Assembly (NCBI GenBank): GCA_964291675.2
Contig: OZ219866.1
Location: 1,248,001-1,312,000 of the forward strand
Reading direction: 5' to 3'
DNA: 64,000 nucleotides
Source of the DNA: Alphaproteobacteria bacterium
GTDB taxonomy: Bacteria > Pseudomonadota > Alphaproteobacteria > MPNO01
In this document: positions 20,899 to 33,517 of the stretch, piece by piece
Position numbering within the stretch: position 1 is the stretch's first letter
Layout: each line of letters begins with the position of its first letter
Translations under genes and position numbers: made by a program
Notes under the pieces: model-generated
What the model was told of the DNA's origin: nothing
The model's input: only the letters and a program-made list of their open reading frames with translations
Databases searched by the model: none

Positions 20899-23682
20899 AT
20901 GCCAAAAGACCAGGAAGCCGCGGTCGCCTTCACCCTCAACGGCGAGACCGTCGCCGCCCAGCCGGGCGAGACCATCTGGCAGGTCGCCGAGCGCCAGGGC
21001 GTCGAGATCCCGCATCTCTGCTATTCGCCGGAGCCGGGCTACCGCGCCGACGGCAATTGCCGCGCCTGCATGGTCGAGATCGAGGGCGAGCGGGTGCTCG
21101 CCGCCTCCTGCATCCGCACTCCGAGCGAGGGGATGGTGGTGGACACCGCGAGCGAGCGCGCGGCCTCGGCGCGGCGCATGGTGTTCGAGCTGCTGATCGC
21201 CGACCAGCCGGGGCGCGCCGACGCGCATGACGCCGATTCGAAGCTGTGGCGCTGGGCCGACCGGATCGGCATCGCCGACAGCCGCTTCGACGCCAAATCC
21301 ATGCCCGCCGCCGATCCCAGCCACCCGGCGATGGCGGTCAATCTCGATGCCTGCATCAACTGCACGCTCTGCGTCCGCGCCTGCCGCGAGGTCCAGGTCA
21401 ACGACGTGATCGGCATGGCGCATCGCGGGTCGCACGCGAAGATCGTCTTCGACTTCGACGATCCGATGGGCGAGTCCACCTGCGTCGCCTGCGGCGAATG
21501 CGTCCAGGCCTGTCCCACCGGCGCGCTGATGCCGGCGGCGATGATGCAGGCGGACCGGCCGGGCGCCGTCACCCCCGACCGCACGGTCGACAGCCTCTGC
21601 CCCTATTGCGGCGTCGGCTGCCAGCTCACCTACCACATCAAGGACGACAAGCTGGTCAAGGTCGAGGGCCGGGACGGCCCGGCCAATCACGGCAGGCTCT
21701 GCGTCAAGGGACGGTTCGGCTTCGACTACGTGCACCACAAGCAGCGCATCGTCACGCCGATGATCCGCCGCGACGGGGTCGGCAAGGACGACCTCGCGAG
21801 CCTGGACGCGGCCAACCCGCTCGCGCTGTTCCGCGAGGCGAGCTGGGAGGAGGCGCTGGACGTTGCCGCCGCCGGGCTCGCCCGCATCCGCGACGCCGAT
21901 GGCGGCAAGGCGCTCGCCGGGTTCGGCTCGGCCAAGGGCTCCAACGAGGAGGCCTATCTGTTCCAGAAGCTGGTGCGGGCGGGCTTCGGCACCAACAACG
22001 TCGATCACTGCACCAGGCTGTGCCACGCGTCCTCCGTCGCGGCGCTGATGGAGACCATCAACTCCGGCGCGGTGACCGCGCCGTTCTTCGAATGCGCCAA
22101 CTCGGACACGATCGTCGTCATCGGCGCCAACCCGGCGGTGAACCACCCGGTCGCGGCGACCTTCTTCAAGAACGCCGCCAAGGCCGGCAAGACCCTGATC
22201 GTCATGGACCCGCGCGGCCAGGCGCTCAGCCGCCACGCGACCCACATGCTCCAGTTCAAGTCGGGCACCGACGTGGCGCTGCTGAACGCGATGATGAACA
22301 CCATCGTCGCCGAGGGGCTGCACGACCCGGCCTATATCGAGCGCCACACCGAGGGGTTCGAGGCGCTGAAGGCGCATGTCGCGCCGTTCACGCCGGAGGA
22401 GATGGCGCCGATCTGCGGCATCGACGCCGAGACCATCCGCACCGTCGCGCGCAAATACGCCACCGCGCCGGCCTCGATCATCTTCTGGGGCATGGGCATC
22501 TCGCAGCACATCCACGGCACCGACAACGCGCGCTGCCTGATCTCGCTCGCCCTGATGACCGGCCAGGTCGGAAGGCCGGGCACCGGGCTGCACCCGCTGC
22601 GCGGGCAGAACAACGTGCAGGGCGCCTCGGATGTCGGGCTGATCCCGATGTTCTACCCCGACTACCGCTCGGTGGCGGGGGCCGACATCCGCGAGACCTT
22701 CGAGGCGGCCTGGAAGACCTCGCTCGACCCCGAGCGCGGGCTCACCGTGGTCGAGATCATGAACGCGGTCCACGCCGGCGAGATCCGCGGCATGTACATC
22801 ATGGGCGAGAACCCGGCGATGTCGGACCCCGATGTGGGCCATGCCCGCGAGGCGCTCGCCATGCTCGACCATCTCGTCGTGCAGGAGCTGTTCCTCACCG
22901 AGACCGCCTATTTCGCCGACGTGCTGCTGCCGGCCTCGGCGTTCCCCGAGAAGGACGGCTCCTACACCAACACCAACCGCCAGGTGCAGATCGGCCGCGC
23001 CGCGCTGCCCCTGCCGGGCGAGGCGCGCCAGGATCTGTGGATCGTCCAGGAGATCGCGCGCCGCCTCGGCCTCGACTGGTCCTATGACGGTCCGGCCGAC
23101 GTGTTCGCCGAGATGCAGCAACTCATGCCCTCGCTCAACGGCATATCCTGGGAGCGGCTGGAGCGCGAGGACTCGGTGACCTACCCCACCGCGTCGTTCG
23201 ACGTGCCGGGCGACGACGTGATCTTCGGCGACGGCTTCCCCACCGCGAGCGGGCGCGGCAAGTTCGTGCCCGCCTCGATCGCCCCGCCGGACGAGGTGCC
23301 GGATGCCGACTTCCCGATGATCCTGACCACCGGCCGCGTGCTGGAGCACTGGCACACCGGCGCGATGACCCGCCGCGCCGGCGTGCTCGACGCCATCGAG
23401 CCCGAGGCGATCGCCCATCTCGCGCCGGCCGATCTCGACCGCATGGGGCTCGCCCCCGGGGCGAAGATCCGGGTCGAGACCAGGCGCGGGGCGATCGAGC
23501 TGATCGGCCGGGTCGACCGGGACGTGCCCGCGGGCGTGGTGTTCATCCCGTTCTGCTTCGCCGAGGCGGCGGCCAATCTGCTGACCAACGACGCCCTCGA
23601 CCCGTTCGGCAAGATCCCCGAGTTCAAGTTCTGCGCCGCGAAGGTGGAGGCGGCGCCGTCGAACGAGCCCGCCGCGGCCTGA
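20899..23682 (+). CDS. fdhF: Formate dehydrogenase alpha subunit (Mo/W-bisPGD, Cys ligand)
   Basis: N-terminal 2Fe-2S and 4Fe-4S motifs, CPYCGVGC, DHCTRLCHASS, LRGQNNVQG. Confidence 0.92.
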   Translation: MPKDQEAAVAFTLNGETVAAQPGETIWQVAERQGVEIPHLCYSPEPGYRADGNCRACMVEIEGERVLAASCIRTPSEGMVVDTASERAASARRMVFELLIADQPGRADAHDADSKLWRWADRIGIADSRFDAKSMPAADPSHPAMAVNLDACINCTLCVRACREVQVNDVIGMAHRGSHAKIVFDFDDPMGESTCVACGECVQACPTGALMPAAMMQADRPGAVTPDRTVDSLCPYCGVGCQLTYHIKDDKLVKVEGRDGPANHGRLCVKGRFGFDYVHHKQRIVTPMIRRDGVGKDDLASLDAANPLALFREASWEEALDVAAAGLARIRDADGGKALAGFGSAKGSNEEAYLFQKLVRAGFGTNNVDHCTRLCHASSVAALMETINSGAVTAPFFECANSDTIVVIGANPAVNHPVAATFFKNAAKAGKTLIVMDPRGQALSRHATHMLQFKSGTDVALLNAMMNTIVAEGLHDPAYIERHTEGFEALKAHVAPFTPEEMAPICGIDAETIRTVARKYATAPASIIFWGMGISQHIHGTDNARCLISLALMTGQVGRPGTGLHPLRGQNNVQGASDVGLIPMFYPDYRSVAGADIRETFEAAWKTSLDPERGLTVVEIMNAVHAGEIRGMYIMGENPAMSDPDVGHAREALAMLDHLVVQELFLTETAYFADVLLPASAFPEKDGSYTNTNRQVQIGRAALPLPGEARQDLWIVQEIARRLGLDWSYDGPADVFAEMQQLMPSLNGISWERLEREDSVTYPTASFDVPGDDVIFGDGFPTASGRGKFVPASIAPPDEVPDADFPMILTTGRVLEHWHTGAMTRRAGVLDAIEPEAIAHLAPADLDRMGLAPGAKIRVETRRGAIELIGRVDRDVPAGVVFIPFCFAEAAANLLTNDALDPFGKIPEFKFCAAKVEAAPSNEPAAA

Positions 23683-28455: not shown

Positions 28456-29254
28456 CGACGACGAGGTTCTGACCGGTGATGTAGCCCGCCTCGTCGGAGC
28501 AGATGAACAGCATCGCCTTGGCGAGGTCGTGGATCGTCCCCTGGCGGGGCAGCGCCTGCGCCCGGGTCATGGTCTTGAACATGTGCCGGGGCACCGACGG
28601 GCGCTCGATCTCGGTCTGCATCACCCCGGGCCAGAAGGTGTTGACGGTGATCCCGTGCGGCCCGAGCTCGCGCGCCATCGAGCGCGACATGCCGACCATC
28701 GCCGACTTGGAGGTGATGTAGTGGAGGTAGTTGGGCCGCCCCTTCACATGGGTGCCCGACGAGACGTTGACGATCCGCCCCCAGCCCGCCTCCATCATCG
28801 CCGGCGCCACGGCACCGGCGCACAGCATCGAGCCGGTGATGTTGACCCGCATCGCCGCCTTCCACTCCTCGACCGGGAGCTCCCAGAACGGCGCCATGGT
28901 GATCTTCGAGAACACGGCGGCGTTGTTGATCAGGATGTCGATCCGCCCGAAGGCCTCCAGCGTCCGCGCCGCCATCGCCGCCACCGAGTCCTCGTCGCCG
29001 ACATCGGTGGCGAGCGCGAGCGCCCGGCCGTGGTCCCGCTCGATTTCGGCGGCGACGCGGCTTGCGTTCTCGCCGTCGATCTCGGCGATGACGGGGACCG
29101 CACCCTGGGCGGCGAAGTAATGCGCGTAGCCGCGCCCGATCCCCTGCCCGCCGCCGGTGACGACGACGACCCGGCCGGCGAGGCTCGCATAGCTCGCCGT
29201 CCTGTCGACGTCGATGCGGGCATAATCGATATGGCCGATCCCGGCGTCCGTCAT
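28433..29254 (-). CDS. SDR family oxidoreductase
   Basis: TGGGQGIG, NNAA, YxxSK, TGQ.L.VDGG. Confidence 0.9.
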   Translation of the reverse strand: MTDAGIGHIDYARIDVDRTASYASLAGRVVVVTGGGQGIGRGYAHYFAAQGAVPVIAEIDGENASRVAAEIERDHGRALALATDVGDEDSVAAMAARTLEAFGRIDILINNAAVFSKITMAPFWELPVEEWKAAMRVNITGSMLCAGAVAPAMMEAGWGRIVNVSSGTHVKGRPNYLHYITSKSAMVGMSRSMARELGPHGITVNTFWPGVMQTEIERPSVPRHMFKTMTRAQALPRQGTIHDLAKAMLFICSDEAGYITGQNLVVDGGSSFI

Positions 29255-29883
29255 GCGTCGTTTTCCGCGCGCCGCCGGGCGCCGATCTCGGTCAGGAATT
29301 TGTCCAGCGTCTCGTAGGGCTGCGCGCCGACCACGCCGTACCCGCCGGCGACGAAGGTGGGAACGCCGCTCACCCCGATCTTGCGCGAGCGCGCCCAGTC
29401 GGCATCGACCGCGTCCCTGAAGCGCCGCTCGTCCAGCACCGCGCGCGCCTCGTCCGCCGGCAGCCCCGCCTCCCCGACGATGCCGAGCAGCGCGTCGGGG
29501 TCGCCGATATTCCTGCCGTCCACGAAATAGGCCCGGTACAGCGCATCGTGCAGCGCCGCGCCGCCGTCGACCGTGTCGGCCCAGGCGCCGAGCTCCTGCG
29601 CGAGCCGGCTGTTATAGGTGTGGGTGCGCCGGGCGTAGTCGAGCCCTTCCCCGTCCATCAGGCCCTTCATGCGCGCATAGGACGCCTCGAGGTCGTAGTC
29701 CCGCCCGGCGAACAGCGCCTCCAGCGTCAGCCCCTCCGCCGGGGTCTCGGGGTGCAGCGGGAAGTGCACCCATTTGATCTCGATGTCGAACTTCCGCCTG
29801 AGCTTCTCGATACGCACGGTACTGAGATAGCACCAGGGTCAGACGTAGTCGGTGAACACCTCAAGCACGATCGGCTCGCTCAT
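29251..29883 (-). CDS. DsbA/FrnE-family thiol-disulfide oxidoreductase, predicted selenoprotein (Sec15, UPWC)
   Basis: GGAGG-ATG MSEPIVLEVFTDYV-TGA-PWCYLSTVRIEKL continues in frame into the 188-aa ORF (FPLHPETP, GVSGVPTF). Confidence 0.85.
29797..29837 (-). promoter_or_regulatory. Candidate bacterial SECIS hairpin
   Basis: CCUGGUGCUAUCUCAGUAC-CGUGC-GUAUCGAGAAGCUCAGG forms an extended imperfect stem right after UGA. Confidence 0.65.
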
Positions 29884-30063: not shown

Positions 30064-30420
30064 ATGACCACGGCTATCGGCAAGGAGCTTCGCAAGCTGC
30101 GCATCGATCGCGAGGAGCGTCTTTTGGACATGGCGGCACAACTGAACAAATCGGCCGCGTTCGTCTCCGCCGTGGAGACCGGGAAGAAATCGCCTCCGGT
30201 CGAGTTCGAAGAACTCGTAATTGACCGTTACGGTTTGAAGCAGGAAGCCGCGAATGCCATGCGCCAAGCAGCGGATCAGTCCCGCGACAGTTTTGTTCTC
30301 CGGCCCTACACGGCCTCGGCACGCGATACCGCGGGCCTGCTTGCGAGAAAGATGAACAAGCTTTCAGAGGCAGAACTTGAGCAAATCCGAACAATACTGA
30401 CCGATGGTGGAAAAACATGA
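30064..30420 (+). CDS. XRE-family HTH regulator (ImmR-like)
   Basis: GKELRKLRI...L.DMA..L..S.AF.SAVE.GKK..P; strong RBS; lower GC. Confidence 0.85.
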   Translation: MTTAIGKELRKLRIDREERLLDMAAQLNKSAAFVSAVETGKKSPPVEFEELVIDRYGLKQEAANAMRQAADQSRDSFVLRPYTASARDTAGLLARKMNKLSEAELEQIRTILTDGGKT

Positions 30421-30947
30421 ACGGTACGGATTACATGGTTCCTCCCCTGTCGTGGGGAAGAATAGGCGAGATCACTGAGAAAGTGCGGTCGGTGCTGGGG
30501 TTGACCGAGGAGCCGTATTTCCCGGTCATGCACGTTACTGAGCTTGTATTGGACCAAGAATTAGACTTGGTCCGCCTTGAAATCGGCTCACGTGACGAGA
30601 TGGACGACGCGGAGGGCCTTACCTGCCCGGACGGCAAATTCATACGGCTGCGGGAGGACGTCTACGAGAAGGGCTGGGCTGGGGAGGGAAGGGCGCGGTT
30701 TACGGCGGCGCACGAGCTTGGACATTTCGTTTTGCACGCCGGGCTACCACTTGCTCGAATCGAGCGACAAGAAAAGTTGCCTCCGTTTCGGCGAGCGGAG
30801 GCCCAAGCGAATCGCTTCGCCGCCGAGATCTTGATGCCGTTGCGTTTCATCGGACGAACCGACAGCGTCCGCGCGATCATGAAGCGTCACGGTGTCTCCC
30901 GCGTCGCCGCGCAAACTCGGCTTGATGGCATGGGAGCGAATGAATGA
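30417..30947 (+). CDS. ImmA/IrrE family metallo-endopeptidase
   Basis: RARFTAAHELGHF.LH and E.QAN.FAAEILMP; ATGA overlap with XRE. Confidence 0.9.
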   Translation: MNGTDYMVPPLSWGRIGEITEKVRSVLGLTEEPYFPVMHVTELVLDQELDLVRLEIGSRDEMDDAEGLTCPDGKFIRLREDVYEKGWAGEGRARFTAAHELGHFVLHAGLPLARIERQEKLPPFRRAEAQANRFAAEILMPLRFIGRTDSVRAIMKRHGVSRVAAQTRLDGMGANE

Positions 30948-30984
30948 AGGACCCGAGCGTCCACTCGGGTCCTTCTGTCTTTTC
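30946..30984 (+). terminator. Perfect 12-bp hairpin with T-rich tail
   Basis: GAAGGACCCGAG-CGTCCA-CTCGGGTCCTTC-TGTCTTTT. Confidence 0.65.
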
Positions 30985-31281: not shown

Positions 31282-31476
31282 TTGTCATGGGATCAGAGCC
31301 GTCATGGCCGGGTCGTTGTGTTTGCTCCATCTACTGTGGAGACAAGGGTACCGGCAACTCCGCTATACGTCACCAAGTGTCGCGTGAGGCCGGCATCGTA
31401 AAGCTGCAAGTTCGCCCGTTGGCGGCCCGGGCCACGCGGGTACAATCGGCCAGCCCACGCCGCACCGGGAGGAGCC

Positions 31477-32580
31477 ATGTCCGGGACCGACTACGACGCC
31501 CCATACCGCGTCCGCGAATCGCTGGTCGCGGCGCAACGCTTGGCCTGGCGCCGCATCGCCGAGCCGGGCGCCTGGCTCGACGGGGAGCGGCGCGTGGCGG
31601 TGGCGGGCGAGGTTCGCGCGGCTGGCGACTGCCCGCTCTGCCGCGCGCGCAAGCAGGCGCTCGCGCCCTTCGCGGTCGCCGGCGAGCACGAGGCGAGCGG
31701 GCCTCTGAGCGCGGCGGAGGTCGAGCTGATCCACCGCCTGACCACCGACCCGGGCCGGCTCCGCCGGTCCTGGGCCGAGGAAATACTCGCCGCCGGGGTG
31801 AGCGAGGAGGTCTATGTCGAGATCGTAAGCGTCGTCTGCATGGTCATGATCGTCGACACCTTCCGCCGCGCGCTCGGCCTGGCGCGGCTCGACCTGCCCG
31901 CGCCGGCGGCGGGGACGCAATCGGGCTACCGCGCCCCGGGCGCCCGGCGCCACGACGCGTGGATCAGCCTGGTGCAGCCGGACGACGTGGTGGAGAGCGA
32001 CGGCGACCTCTACGGCGCCGCCGCCTCGCCGGTGGTCAAGGCGCTGTCGCTGGTGCCGGAAGCCAAGCGGGCCTATTGGGACCTCGCCGAGGAGCACTAT
32101 TTGCCGGGCAGCGAGATGACCGACTTCGCGACCGGGGTCCGTGCCATCGACCGCATGCAGATGGAGCTGGTCGCGGGCCGGGTGTCGGCGCTCCATCAAT
32201 GCGTCTACTGAACCAGCGCCCATGCGTTCATGCTCCGTGCGAGCACAGAGGTTTCGGGCGCCGATTTCGACCTGGGGGCCGTCACCGGCGAAGCGACGGA
32301 TGACGGCGGCATCGCCGGCGGGGTGCTGCTGCACGGCTTCGCCGAGGCGGTCACGCTCGGCGACGCGGCGCGGACGGCCGAGCTGAGGGACGCGCTGGTC
32401 GACCGGCTGGGCGAGGCGGCGATGATCGACGCGGCGGCGACCGCGGCGGCGTTCCACGGCTTCGTCCGGGTGGTCGACGCCACCGGCGCCCCGGTGGCGG
32501 GAGCGGCGGGCGGACGGGTGACCCCCGAATTCCGCCAGGCGCTCGGCATCGACGAGTTCTACGGCGCGCGCAACCCCTGA
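31477..32580 (+). CDS. AhpD-like alkylhydroperoxidase-related protein, predicted selenoprotein (CVYU, 367 aa by UGA readthrough)
   Basis: ORF 31477-32211 ends QMELVAGRVSALHQCVY-TGA; frame continues TSAHAF into ORF 32230-32580, giving AhpD-type CxxUxxxH. Confidence 0.8.
32231..32245 (+). promoter_or_regulatory. Candidate SECIS apical hairpin
   Basis: UGCUC-CGUGC-GAGCA, loop 24 nt after UGA; same loop as the DsbA hairpin. Confidence 0.6.
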
Positions 32581-32586
32581 CGCGGT

Positions 32587-33456
32587 TCAGAAGAGCGACG
32601 GCGCCTCCGGGTCGTGGCGCGCGTGGCGCGCCCTGGCGGCGCGGGGGCTGGCCACCGCGTAGCAGTAGATGCAGCCATGCGGGCAGCTGTCATAGGCGCC
32701 GATGTCGCGCGCCTCGTGGCAGGCGCAGCCCGGCCGGTTGCCCTTCTCCCTGGCCGCGATCGGCCGGCCCGCCACGTCGCCGAGCCGCCCCGCGTCGATG
32801 CAGCGCGCCTCCCTCGCGCCGCCGGCGGCGAGGTCGGGCTGGGCGCAGATCGTGGCCTGCATCCCGAACGCCCTTGCAGTGGCGGCGAGCTCGGCGACCG
32901 TCGCCCGCTTGCGCTCGACCGCGGGGTCCTCCCAGGTCAGCCCCGACGCCCGCCCGGCGGCGGCGAGGTTGCGGCGCGTCTTGCGATAAAGGCTCGCGAA
33001 CGACAGCACCGCCTCGTCGACCGCCCCGGCGAGCGCCTCGGCGAGGCGGGCGAAGCGTTCGACATGGGAGCAGAGCGGCGTGGCGCCGGTCACGATGATC
33101 GGGTCGCAGCGCCAGACCGCGGCGCGCGGGCCGAAATCCCGGGCGATCGCATGCACCTGTTCGGCGGCCCGCGCGGCGTCGATCACCGAGGTTTCGAGCA
33201 GCCGCGGATAGCCGGTGATCGTGTAGTGGACGACGAAGGGGATGCCGTCCGATGCCAGGCGTTCGAGCACCGGGAGGAACGGCGCCGCGTTGCGCGTCCA
33301 GAACACGAAGCCGGAGACCGACTCCCGGTCGAGGCGGACGGTGTAGGGCTTGCCGTAGGGGTTTCGCACCGTGCAAAACCCGGCCGCCAGGCGTCGTTCG
33401 AACCACGCGCCGTAAAAGGCCGGGATATCGGTGCGGTAGCTCGCGGATACGATCAT
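32587..33456 (-). CDS. DUF1848 family protein
   Basis: MIVSASYRTDIPAFY, FVFWTRN, C.C....DIGAYDSCPHGC.YCYA. Confidence 0.85.
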   Translation of the reverse strand: MIVSASYRTDIPAFYGAWFERRLAAGFCTVRNPYGKPYTVRLDRESVSGFVFWTRNAAPFLPVLERLASDGIPFVVHYTITGYPRLLETSVIDAARAAEQVHAIARDFGPRAAVWRCDPIIVTGATPLCSHVERFARLAEALAGAVDEAVLSFASLYRKTRRNLAAAGRASGLTWEDPAVERKRATVAELAATARAFGMQATICAQPDLAAGGAREARCIDAGRLGDVAGRPIAAREKGNRPGCACHEARDIGAYDSCPHGCIYCYAVASPRAARARHARHDPEAPSLF

Positions 33457-33486
33457 CGGCCATACCCCTGCGGGACGCGGCGAGCG

Positions 33487-33517
33487 GTTGTACCGCCGGT
33501 TCCCCGACCCTATATAT
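33487..33517 (+). promoter_or_regulatory. RpoH (sigma32)-type promoter of dnaK
   Basis: GTTG-N18-CCTATAT resembles the alphaproteobacterial RpoH consensus CTTG-N17/18-CCTATAT. Confidence 0.55.

Follow-up and report, generated by a model that had tools for sequence, protein, structure and literature searches.

Does the TGA that interrupts an AhpD-related reading frame in an alphaproteobacterial genome end one protein, or does it specify selenocysteine (Sec, U) within a longer one? The question is raised by a locus in a window of 64,000 nt (contig OZ219866.1, positions 1,248,001-1,312,000; all window coordinates count from its first letter), where the listing of open reading frames (ORFs) gives two pieces in the same frame, 31477..32211 (244 aa) and 32230..32580 (116 aa). 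An initial annotation had proposed that the two form one 367-aa selenoprotein with a CxxU site, an AhpD/CMD active-site motif and a second, N-terminal CPLC, and that the protein is multi-domain. We find that 31477-32580 is one gene, transcribed alone, and we hold with high confidence that it is a genuine selenoprotein gene of the SelB/SECIS (Sec insertion sequence) type, with U245 at the TGA. Insertion of Sec itself we infer, at the level of sequence, from the family, the existence of paired Sec and Cys forms, the machinery encoded in the genome and a conserved hairpin. The elements of the gene are:

31419..31446, forward strand: promoter-like TTGGCG-16 nt-TACAAT, 30 nt ahead of the start codon (consensus scan)
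31467..31474, forward strand: Shine-Dalgarno-like GGGAGGAG ahead of ATG 31477 (read from the sequence)
31477..32580, forward strand: single coding sequence, very probably of a 367-aa AhpD-related selenoprotein (translation with TGA as U, match to family model NF041238, tblastn)
32209..32211, forward strand: TGA, very probably read as selenocysteine U245 (TGA at this column in 56/56 loci; Cys in 24/26 non-TGA homologs)

The frame opened by the ATG at 31477 reaches the TGA at 32209-32211 and is then open until a second TGA at 32578-32580. The codons around the first TGA read H-Q-C242 (TGC 32200-32202)-V-Y-TGA-ACC-AGC-GCC-CAT-GCG-TTC-ATG, the last being ATG 32230, so that the 244-aa ORF does end in CVY-TGA with its frame running into the 116-aa ORF, as had been noticed from the letters. 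The active-site stretch, E230-L-V-A-G-R-V-S-A-L-H-Q-C242-V-Y-TGA-T-S-A-H-A-F-M, gives the motif E230-x6-S237-x4-C242-x-x-U245-x3-H249 in the joined product, and the N-terminal C52-P-L-C55 is encoded at 31630-31641. No Shine-Dalgarno-like purine run was found upstream of ATG 32230, where the preceding bases are ACCAGCGCCCATGCGTTC, which agrees with the earlier remark that the 116-aa ORF has no evident ribosome-binding site. The scan for promoter-like sites returned one site, against a mean of 0.1 in 50 shuffles, and this is a consensus match only.

Translated with TGA as U, the 367-aa product matches the NCBIfam model NF041238 at 425.3 bits against a cut-off of 175 (E = 2e-127), over residues 12-362 and profile positions 1-356 of 357, and is a member of that family; a search with the profile at the genome level gave 416.7 bits at the same locus. 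NF041238 (AhpD_rel_CFYUT, ‘alkylhydroperoxidase-related (seleno)protein’) is an equivalog model. The window copy shares with the family a full-length match over the cut-off, a length of ∼357-367 aa, the C-x-Y-U-T motif (here C242-V-Y-TGA-T246) and a SECIS-like hairpin after the UGA; it has C-V-Y-U-T where the family name has C-F-Y-U-T, and otherwise nothing essential differs. Profile positions 1-238 are matched by the 244-aa piece and positions 246-356 by the 116-aa piece. Because the two pieces align with successive stretches of a single profile, with the TGA column constant in 56 loci, their joining is far beyond chance. In a table of a 2026 review (PMC13188914), NF041238 is given as the same family as ‘hypothetical protein 1’ from the Sargasso Sea selenoproteome, for which PMC1088965 (2005) describes four sequences that share a conserved CXXU and have a predicted SECIS; the product of the window gene is a member of NF041238 and is this protein.

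If the TGA were a real stop, the locus would encode a separate 244-aa protein and a 116-aa protein initiated at ATG 32230. Gene callers split it exactly so, and most of the relatives listed in database searches are of the shorter kind. A word-indexed search of 5.8 billion proteins listed 120 best relatives, nearly all of 221-257 aa and ending at the TGA; they cover 60-66% of the query, the exception being P0026 (400 aa, with a DUF1848 Pfam label). A HMMER search of 1.84 billion representatives gave 1390 matches at E ≤0.001, and of the 150 listed the majority stop at query residue 244. Shortened entries are, however, the expected output of a caller unaware of Sec. In addition, the downstream ATG is without a ribosome-binding site, the codon aligned with M252 is Leu in four of the five paralogs of the host genome, full-length Cys homologs exist, the predicted C-terminal domain needs residues from both sides of the TGA, and H249 of the active-site motif would be lost. 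A genuine stop is, on these grounds, very improbable; a 244-residue product, if made, would lose U245, H249 and half of the catalytic domain. The results lend no support to the shortened form that the initial annotation had suggested for times of selenium scarcity, or to a function for it. The best match among the 120 listed relatives, P0002, is 92% identical and carries the family's ‘(seleno)protein’ name, yet is stored as 244 aa ending at the UGA. In at least this record the public annotation of the family is truncated.

The host genome (G000, coordinates below on its sequences C1 and C2) has five NF041238 matches that exceed the cut-off; every one contains a single in-frame TGA, and all read C-x-Y-TGA-T-x-x-H. 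Besides the window copy these are:

G000:C2:580921-581970: paralog with TGA
G000:C2:2502342-2503397, reverse strand: paralog with TGA
G000:C1:738871-739923: paralog with TGA
G000:C2:951686-952723: paralog with TGA

Pairwise identity among the five is 34-55%, and they are therefore old duplicates. The family was found in 32 of 41 related genomes, where 101 of 102 matches have exactly one TGA; the sole match without it is a contig-end fragment (profile positions 1-116) that does not reach the site, and one of the 102 has an extra TAG. Four or five copies are present in each of the 11 other genomes of the genus. In an evenly drawn sample of 301 genomes of the class, 14 contain the family, with a TGA in 24 of 24 matches. 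A set of 56 loci was assembled from the five paralogs, 11 loci returned by the search of relatives and 40 chosen from the tables for relatives and class. All 56 read C-x-Y-TGA-T-x-x-H with the TGA at the same alignment column, and E230, C242, U245 and H249 are invariant in these Sec forms. The tblastn alignments cross the TGA, spanning residues 1-366 in seven of ten relatives' loci and at least 12-362 in all ten; within the genus, identity over residues 1-366 is 79-90%, and the 122 codons after the TGA are open and conserved.

This constancy bears on the idea that the locus is a pseudogene in which a Cys codon underwent a nonsense mutation (TGC/TGT to TGA). Cys forms of the family exist, and TGA is one base from either Cys codon. 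A decayed gene would not, however, be expected to show TGA in 101/102 relatives' matches, in 24/24 class-sample matches and in all five paralogs, with 122 open and conserved codons downstream and Sec machinery in the genome, and we consider this origin extremely improbable.

Full-length homologs with Cys at the site, which the initial annotation had named as the thing to look for, were found. Twenty-six full-length homologs without TGA (324-429 aa), in which the match runs past residue 244, were picked by eye among the 150 listed representatives; P0142 and P0210, which also span the site, were left out of this set. The residue aligned with the TGA is Cys in 24 of them and Gly in two. Such a Sec/Cys pair is the classical signature of a selenoprotein. 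Homologs consistently ending in TAA or TAG, or unconserved linker codons, had been named as observations that would overturn the proposal; neither TAA nor TAG stands in place of the TGA in any homolog examined, and the codons past the TGA are conserved. A quick tree groups the window copy in a 14-row clade drawn entirely from the taxonomic family of the organism (Shimodaira-Hasegawa-like approximate likelihood ratio support, SH-aLRT, 100), and 23 of the 26 Cys forms lie in a different part.

The genome also encodes what is needed for Sec incorporation:

G000:C2:2838438-2840312, reverse strand: selB (455.7 bits, over cut-off)
Directly adjoining selB on C2, reverse strand: selA (565.5 bits, over cut-off)
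C2:2837316-2837407, reverse strand: tRNA-Sec (76.7 bits; ARAGORN anticodon TCA)
C2:1869115-1870017: selD (314.4 bits, over cut-off)

With selA, selB, selD and tRNA-Sec in one genome, the host is able to make selenoproteins. Low-level near-cognate read-through of UGA is known in bacteria, and the codon could in principle be read by near-cognate insertion of Trp or Cys, or under a different genetic code, rather than as Sec. But TGA terminates the AhpD-related gene itself and many genes in the genome scan described below, and the genetic code is therefore the standard one; moreover, a dedicated tRNA-Sec, selA, selB and selD are present, together with a conserved hairpin at SECIS distance. Decoding other than by Sec is thus highly unlikely.

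Some further observations on the machinery can be recorded here. The genes selA, selB and tRNA-Sec are clustered at G000:C2:2837316-2841709 (reverse strand). A distance of ∼1 kb separates the end of the selB profile match from the start of the tRNA-Sec gene, which therefore does not seem to lie inside selB; the review mentions a nested arrangement for some Alphaproteobacteria (PMC13188914). A second match to the Rfam tRNA-Sec model, at G000:C1:575087-575172 (forward strand), has 48.1 bits against a gathering score of 47 and may be an ordinary long-arm tRNA. No genome match to TIGR01553, the selenocysteine type of formate dehydrogenase, was found over the cut-off or with a TGA. A molybdopterin-oxidoreductase-like frame of 928 aa with no in-frame stop lies at window 21568-23643 (forward strand; G000:C2:1269568-1271643) and is matched weakly and in pieces by the formate dehydrogenase alpha model.

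Immediately past the UGA the transcript can form a candidate SECIS:

32216..32261, forward strand: SECIS-like hairpin (minimum-free-energy (MFE) folds, 56-locus alignment, constraints of the SECIS model)

The lower stem GCGCCC (32216-32221) pairs with GGGCGC (32256-32261) and the upper stem UGCUC (32231-32235) with GAGCA (32241-32245), leaving the apical loop CGUGC (32236-32240), which starts 24 nt past the UGA; the MFE fold of the window copy holds both stems. According to the legend to Figure 2 of PMC13188914, a bacterial SECIS has a loop of 3-9 nt with a G in its first two positions, an upper stem of 4-16 bp, a distance of 16-37 nt from the UGA and an MFE of −7.5 kcal/mol or lower. The window copy satisfies each of these constraints, with a 5-nt loop, a G at loop position 2 (followed by U), a 5-bp upper stem, a spacing of 24 nt and an MFE of −22.5 kcal/mol for a 63-nt fold.

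Conservation of the hairpin was assessed in a gap-free alignment (A1) of the 60 nt from the TGA onward in the 56 loci. A stem made of columns 23-27 and 33-37 (consensus UGCUC/GAGCG) encloses the loop CGUGN, and three more outer pairs are possible. RNAalifold having given only three pairs, the resulting 8-pair helix was drawn by hand and then tested by pair counts. Standard pairs occupy 83.3% of its 432 cells, a share that drops to 27-50% if the 3′ partner is shifted by 1-3 columns. Changes on both sides are seen in 16 cells, where shuffles average 6.8, and none of 500 shuffles reached the pairing or covariation score of the alignment. The inner five pairs are formed in at least 50 of the 54 distinct sequences. 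Conservation of the encoded residues differs between the two forms of the family: R254 is kept in 55/56 Sec forms and 8/26 Cys forms, S256 in 56/56 and 11/26, and T246 in 56/56 and 9/26. The residues encoded at the top of the hairpin hardly vary among Sec forms yet do vary among Cys forms, which points to a constraint on the RNA and not on the protein. A hairpin with the same CGUGC loop lies 20 nt past the UGA of an unrelated, DsbA-like gene nearby.

Several results weigh against the hairpin as a SECIS. The outer three pairs of the 8-pair helix are weak, with columns 21 and 39 unpaired in 30 of the 54 distinct sequences, and RNAalifold alone found just the three innermost, invariant pairs in the 56-locus alignment. 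The 101-nt stretch around the hairpin is no more stable than its shuffles (z = +1.45; 188 of 200 fold at least as well), and the CGUGN-loop hairpin is missing from the MFE fold in two of the five paralogs. An Rfam scan of 31400-32700 at E ≤10 gave six chance-level matches and no SECIS family. With these points counted in, our assessment of the locus as a SelB/SECIS-type selenoprotein gene is the one given at the outset.

The fused protein was modelled with AlphaFold2 from a 27-sequence alignment, giving an all-helical structure with a mean predicted local distance difference test (pLDDT) of 92.8 and a predicted template modelling score (pTM) of 0.93. Two AhpD-like all-helical domains, fused in one chain, make up the predicted fold, in line with the multi-domain protein proposed at first:

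31477..31880, forward strand: predicted N-terminal diverged AhpD-like domain, ∼residues 1-135, with C52-P-L-C55 at a helix N-terminus (AlphaFold2 and comparison with the PDB)
32029..32535, forward strand: predicted C-terminal AhpD-like catalytic domain, ∼residues 185-353, with E230...C242-V-Y-U245-T-S-A-H249 (profile and structure matches)

For the C-terminal domain, the family profile from alignment A2 matches Deinococcus radiodurans AhpD (6k40) with E = 1.6e-17 over profile positions 191-351, and the E...C-x-Y-C...H stretch of 6k40 aligns with it; four other peroxidase-related AhpD-like structures are also matched, and the matches are confined to positions 191-353. Foldseek with the whole model found no PDB entry at E ≤0.001 (the best was 6k40_A, E = 6.5e-3), and the usable structural scores are those from VIA re-alignment. 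By these, the C-terminal half scores Z 12-13 against AhpD-like chains over ∼175 residues (model residues 158-351), for example 6k40_B (Z 13.2, root-mean-square deviation (rmsd) 2.9, 174 aligned, model residues 159-349) and the debrominase Bmp8, 6ohi_A (Z 12.5). Both the AhpD fold and the E...CxxC...H arrangement are thus found, and the AhpD/CMD motif read in the joined sequence, with its E230, S237, C242, U245 and H249, stands.

Residues 1-150 were also modelled alone (AlphaFold2, pLDDT 93.7) and compared with 48,161 PDB chains. The top eight are all proteins of the AhpD/CMD fold, and unrelated chains have Z ≤4.8; matches include 2pfx_B (Z 8.7, rmsd 3.0, 113 aligned), Mycobacterium tuberculosis AhpD 1gu9_A (Z 6.8) and Sestrin2 (Z 5.0). 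The uniform top of this list, and not the Z values, which are modest for helical proteins, supports a diverged AhpD-like domain at the N-terminus of the model. The second CPLC is real and well kept, C52 in 52/56 Sec forms and 23/26 Cys forms, and C55 in 51/56 and 24/26.

Against kinship with AhpD it counts that the single sequence scores below the cut-off with each standard model, at 18.9 bits (cut-off 23) for Pfam CMD PF02627, 22.7 bits (cut-off 27.8) for TIGR00778 ahpD_dom over residues 223-255, and 34.3 bits (cut-off 81.8) for TIGR01926. Because these scores lie under the cut-offs, yet the family profile reaches solved AhpD-like proteins, the protein is a distant relative within the AhpD fold superfamily and not a member of the PF02627, TIGR00778 or TIGR01926 models.

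The C-terminal all-helical fold is common to AhpD (1gu9/1knc) and to the peroxidase-related AhpD-like proteins (TIGR01926; 6k40, 2oyo, 2prr, 3c1l, 2pfx), and AhpD has the same active-site motif, E-x11-C-x-x-C/U-x3-H. The nucleophile of M. tuberculosis AhpD is the second cysteine in its CxxC, assisted by a Glu-His pair. Compared with AhpD, the window protein is about twice as long, owing to the extra diverged AhpD-like domain at its N-terminus, which has its own CxxC but no His four residues later, and Sec replaces the second Cys of the C-terminal CxxC.

The best match to the whole model is human Sestrin2 (5t0n_A: Z 17.1, rmsd 3.5, 241 aligned, model residues 1-339), covering both domains. Sestrin2 (5t0n, 5dj4, 5cuf) and Escherichia coli YciW have two AhpD-like lobes per chain, packed like the AhpD dimer, as in the model of the window protein. 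However, sequence identity to Sestrin2 is 9-10%, Sestrins are without Sec, and the protein does not belong to PA26 (Sestrin), there being no Pfam match at E ≤1 and no Sestrin in the PDB-sequence profile search at E ≤10. The likeness is structural only and may simply reflect that two AhpD-like domains have been joined; bacterial fused double-AhpD proteins such as YciW are said in PMC11429811 to resemble Sestrin. Also comparable are the AhpD-like 1 (COG2128/TIGR01926) and AhpD-like 2/CMD (PF02627) selenoproteins of marine metagenomes (PMC2398784, PMC1088965), which share a CxxU in an AhpD/CMD-type domain and, like the window gene, have a bacterial SECIS directly past the UGA. These are listed under single-domain models, whereas the window protein has two domains, and PMC13188914 lists TIGR01926, PF02627 and NF041238 as separate families.

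These comparisons suggest how the gene and its product might work. During translation, the hairpin at 32216-32261 would be bound by SelB carrying Sec-tRNA(Sec), and the UGA at 32209-32211 would then be decoded as selenocysteine rather than stop. By analogy with AhpD, U245 would be the attacking group, with an oxidised partner or a hydroperoxide as its target, and C242 would resolve the adduct to a C242-U245 selenenylsulfide, to be reopened by a reductant. From the predicted fold and the motif we infer a peroxidase/reductase activity; on the same analogy, the protein is most likely a selenol/thiol-based reductase acting on a peroxiredoxin-type partner, a hydroperoxide or another electrophile.

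The surroundings of the gene fit a single transcription unit. A terminator-like hairpin of 12 pairs at 30946-30975 ends an upstream HTH/ImmA-IrrE pair, the promoter-like site at 31419-31446 comes after it, and downstream a convergent DUF1848 gene (32587-33504, reverse strand) begins 7 nt past the AhpD-related stop, with dnaK next. The order SDR, DsbA-like, AhpD-related, DUF1848, dnaK is found in six of seven loci from the same genus and in none of three from other genera of the family.

The DsbA-like gene, 1.6 kb upstream, is a second split selenoprotein gene (window 29251-29883, reverse strand; TGA 29839-29841). It starts at ATG 29883 after GAAGGAGG and reads M-S-E-P-I-V-L-E-V-F-T-D-Y-V-U-P-W-C-Y; the read-through product scores 115 bits with Pfam DSBA (positions 2-190 of 191), against 82.6 bits from position 19 for the 188-aa ORF alone. 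Its TGA and an identical hairpin recur in six of ten relatives' loci, each from the same genus. An HTH_31 gene and an overlapping ImmA/IrrE M78 peptidase gene (window 30064-30975, forward strand) occupy the space between the two divergent selenoprotein genes. The corresponding gap is 118 and 165 nt in two loci of the same genus (L085, L088) and 2-2.7 kb in four others, and the interval looks like a variable insertion site. The pairing, kept in six of seven same-genus loci, was not used as evidence of a functional link between the DsbA-like and AhpD-related proteins, because it is kept in none of the three loci from other genera.

A third gene of this kind, Prx-like (AhpC/TSA), lies at L083:292-759 (reverse strand), that is G000:C2 ∼1949991-1950458, with its TGA at C2:1950324-1950326. 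It reads F-Y-R-G-H-W-U-P-F-C, its read-through product matches Pfam AhpC-TSA positions 1-122 of 124, and the hairpin past its UGA is of a different kind, with the loop GCC. The DsbA-like and Prx-like genes were revealed by a genome scan for in-frame TGA with coding signal on both sides, which gave 180 candidates, mostly ordinary gene junctions; it was too strict, re-finding two of the five paralogs, and does not amount to a census of the selenoproteome.

One could go further and suppose that the five all-Sec paralogs are double-AhpD reductases with differing substrates, in which the N-terminal CxxC relays electrons to the CxxU, and that the window copy takes part in a selenium relay with the DsbA-like or Prx-like selenoprotein, as AhpD serves AhpC. 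We regard this as speculative and rather unlikely. The neighbourhoods of the five paralogs, as seen in Pfam matches of 28 ORFs picked by length and G+C content at third codon positions (GC3), have no common partner. Single paralogs have neighbours of their own: a thioredoxin-reductase-like gene and an Lrp/AsnC regulator (L079), panB downstream (L080), an EamA transporter immediately upstream in the same orientation (L081), and both a CMD-family gene and a glutathione S-transferase (GST; L082).

The finding itself is already known, because the family, its Sec codon and its motif are in print and in NCBI annotation rules. Among papers searched in full text, only the review PMC13188914 mentions NF041238, CFYUT or ‘alkylhydroperoxidase-related’. 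The literature searched held no description of the 4-5-fold all-Sec paralogy in a genus, though supplementary tables of selenoproteome papers may list paralogs, nor, for this family, of the double-AhpD/Sestrin-like model, the conserved N-terminal CxxC or the shared CGUGC loop. These four points are modest additions to a known family.

The current understanding of selenoproteins is unchanged by this locus. For annotation, it is a textbook case of a selenoprotein gene halved by a caller that treats TGA as stop. Were the redox relay among the paralogs true, the Sec trait of the lineage would be kept mainly for a redox network, because the genome search gave no selenocysteine formate dehydrogenase of the TIGR01553 type. 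No member of the AhpD-related family is characterised, and a genus with four or five old all-Sec paralogs beside DsbA-like and Prx-like selenoproteins is a convenient place to ask what role a CxxU AhpD-like centre plays.

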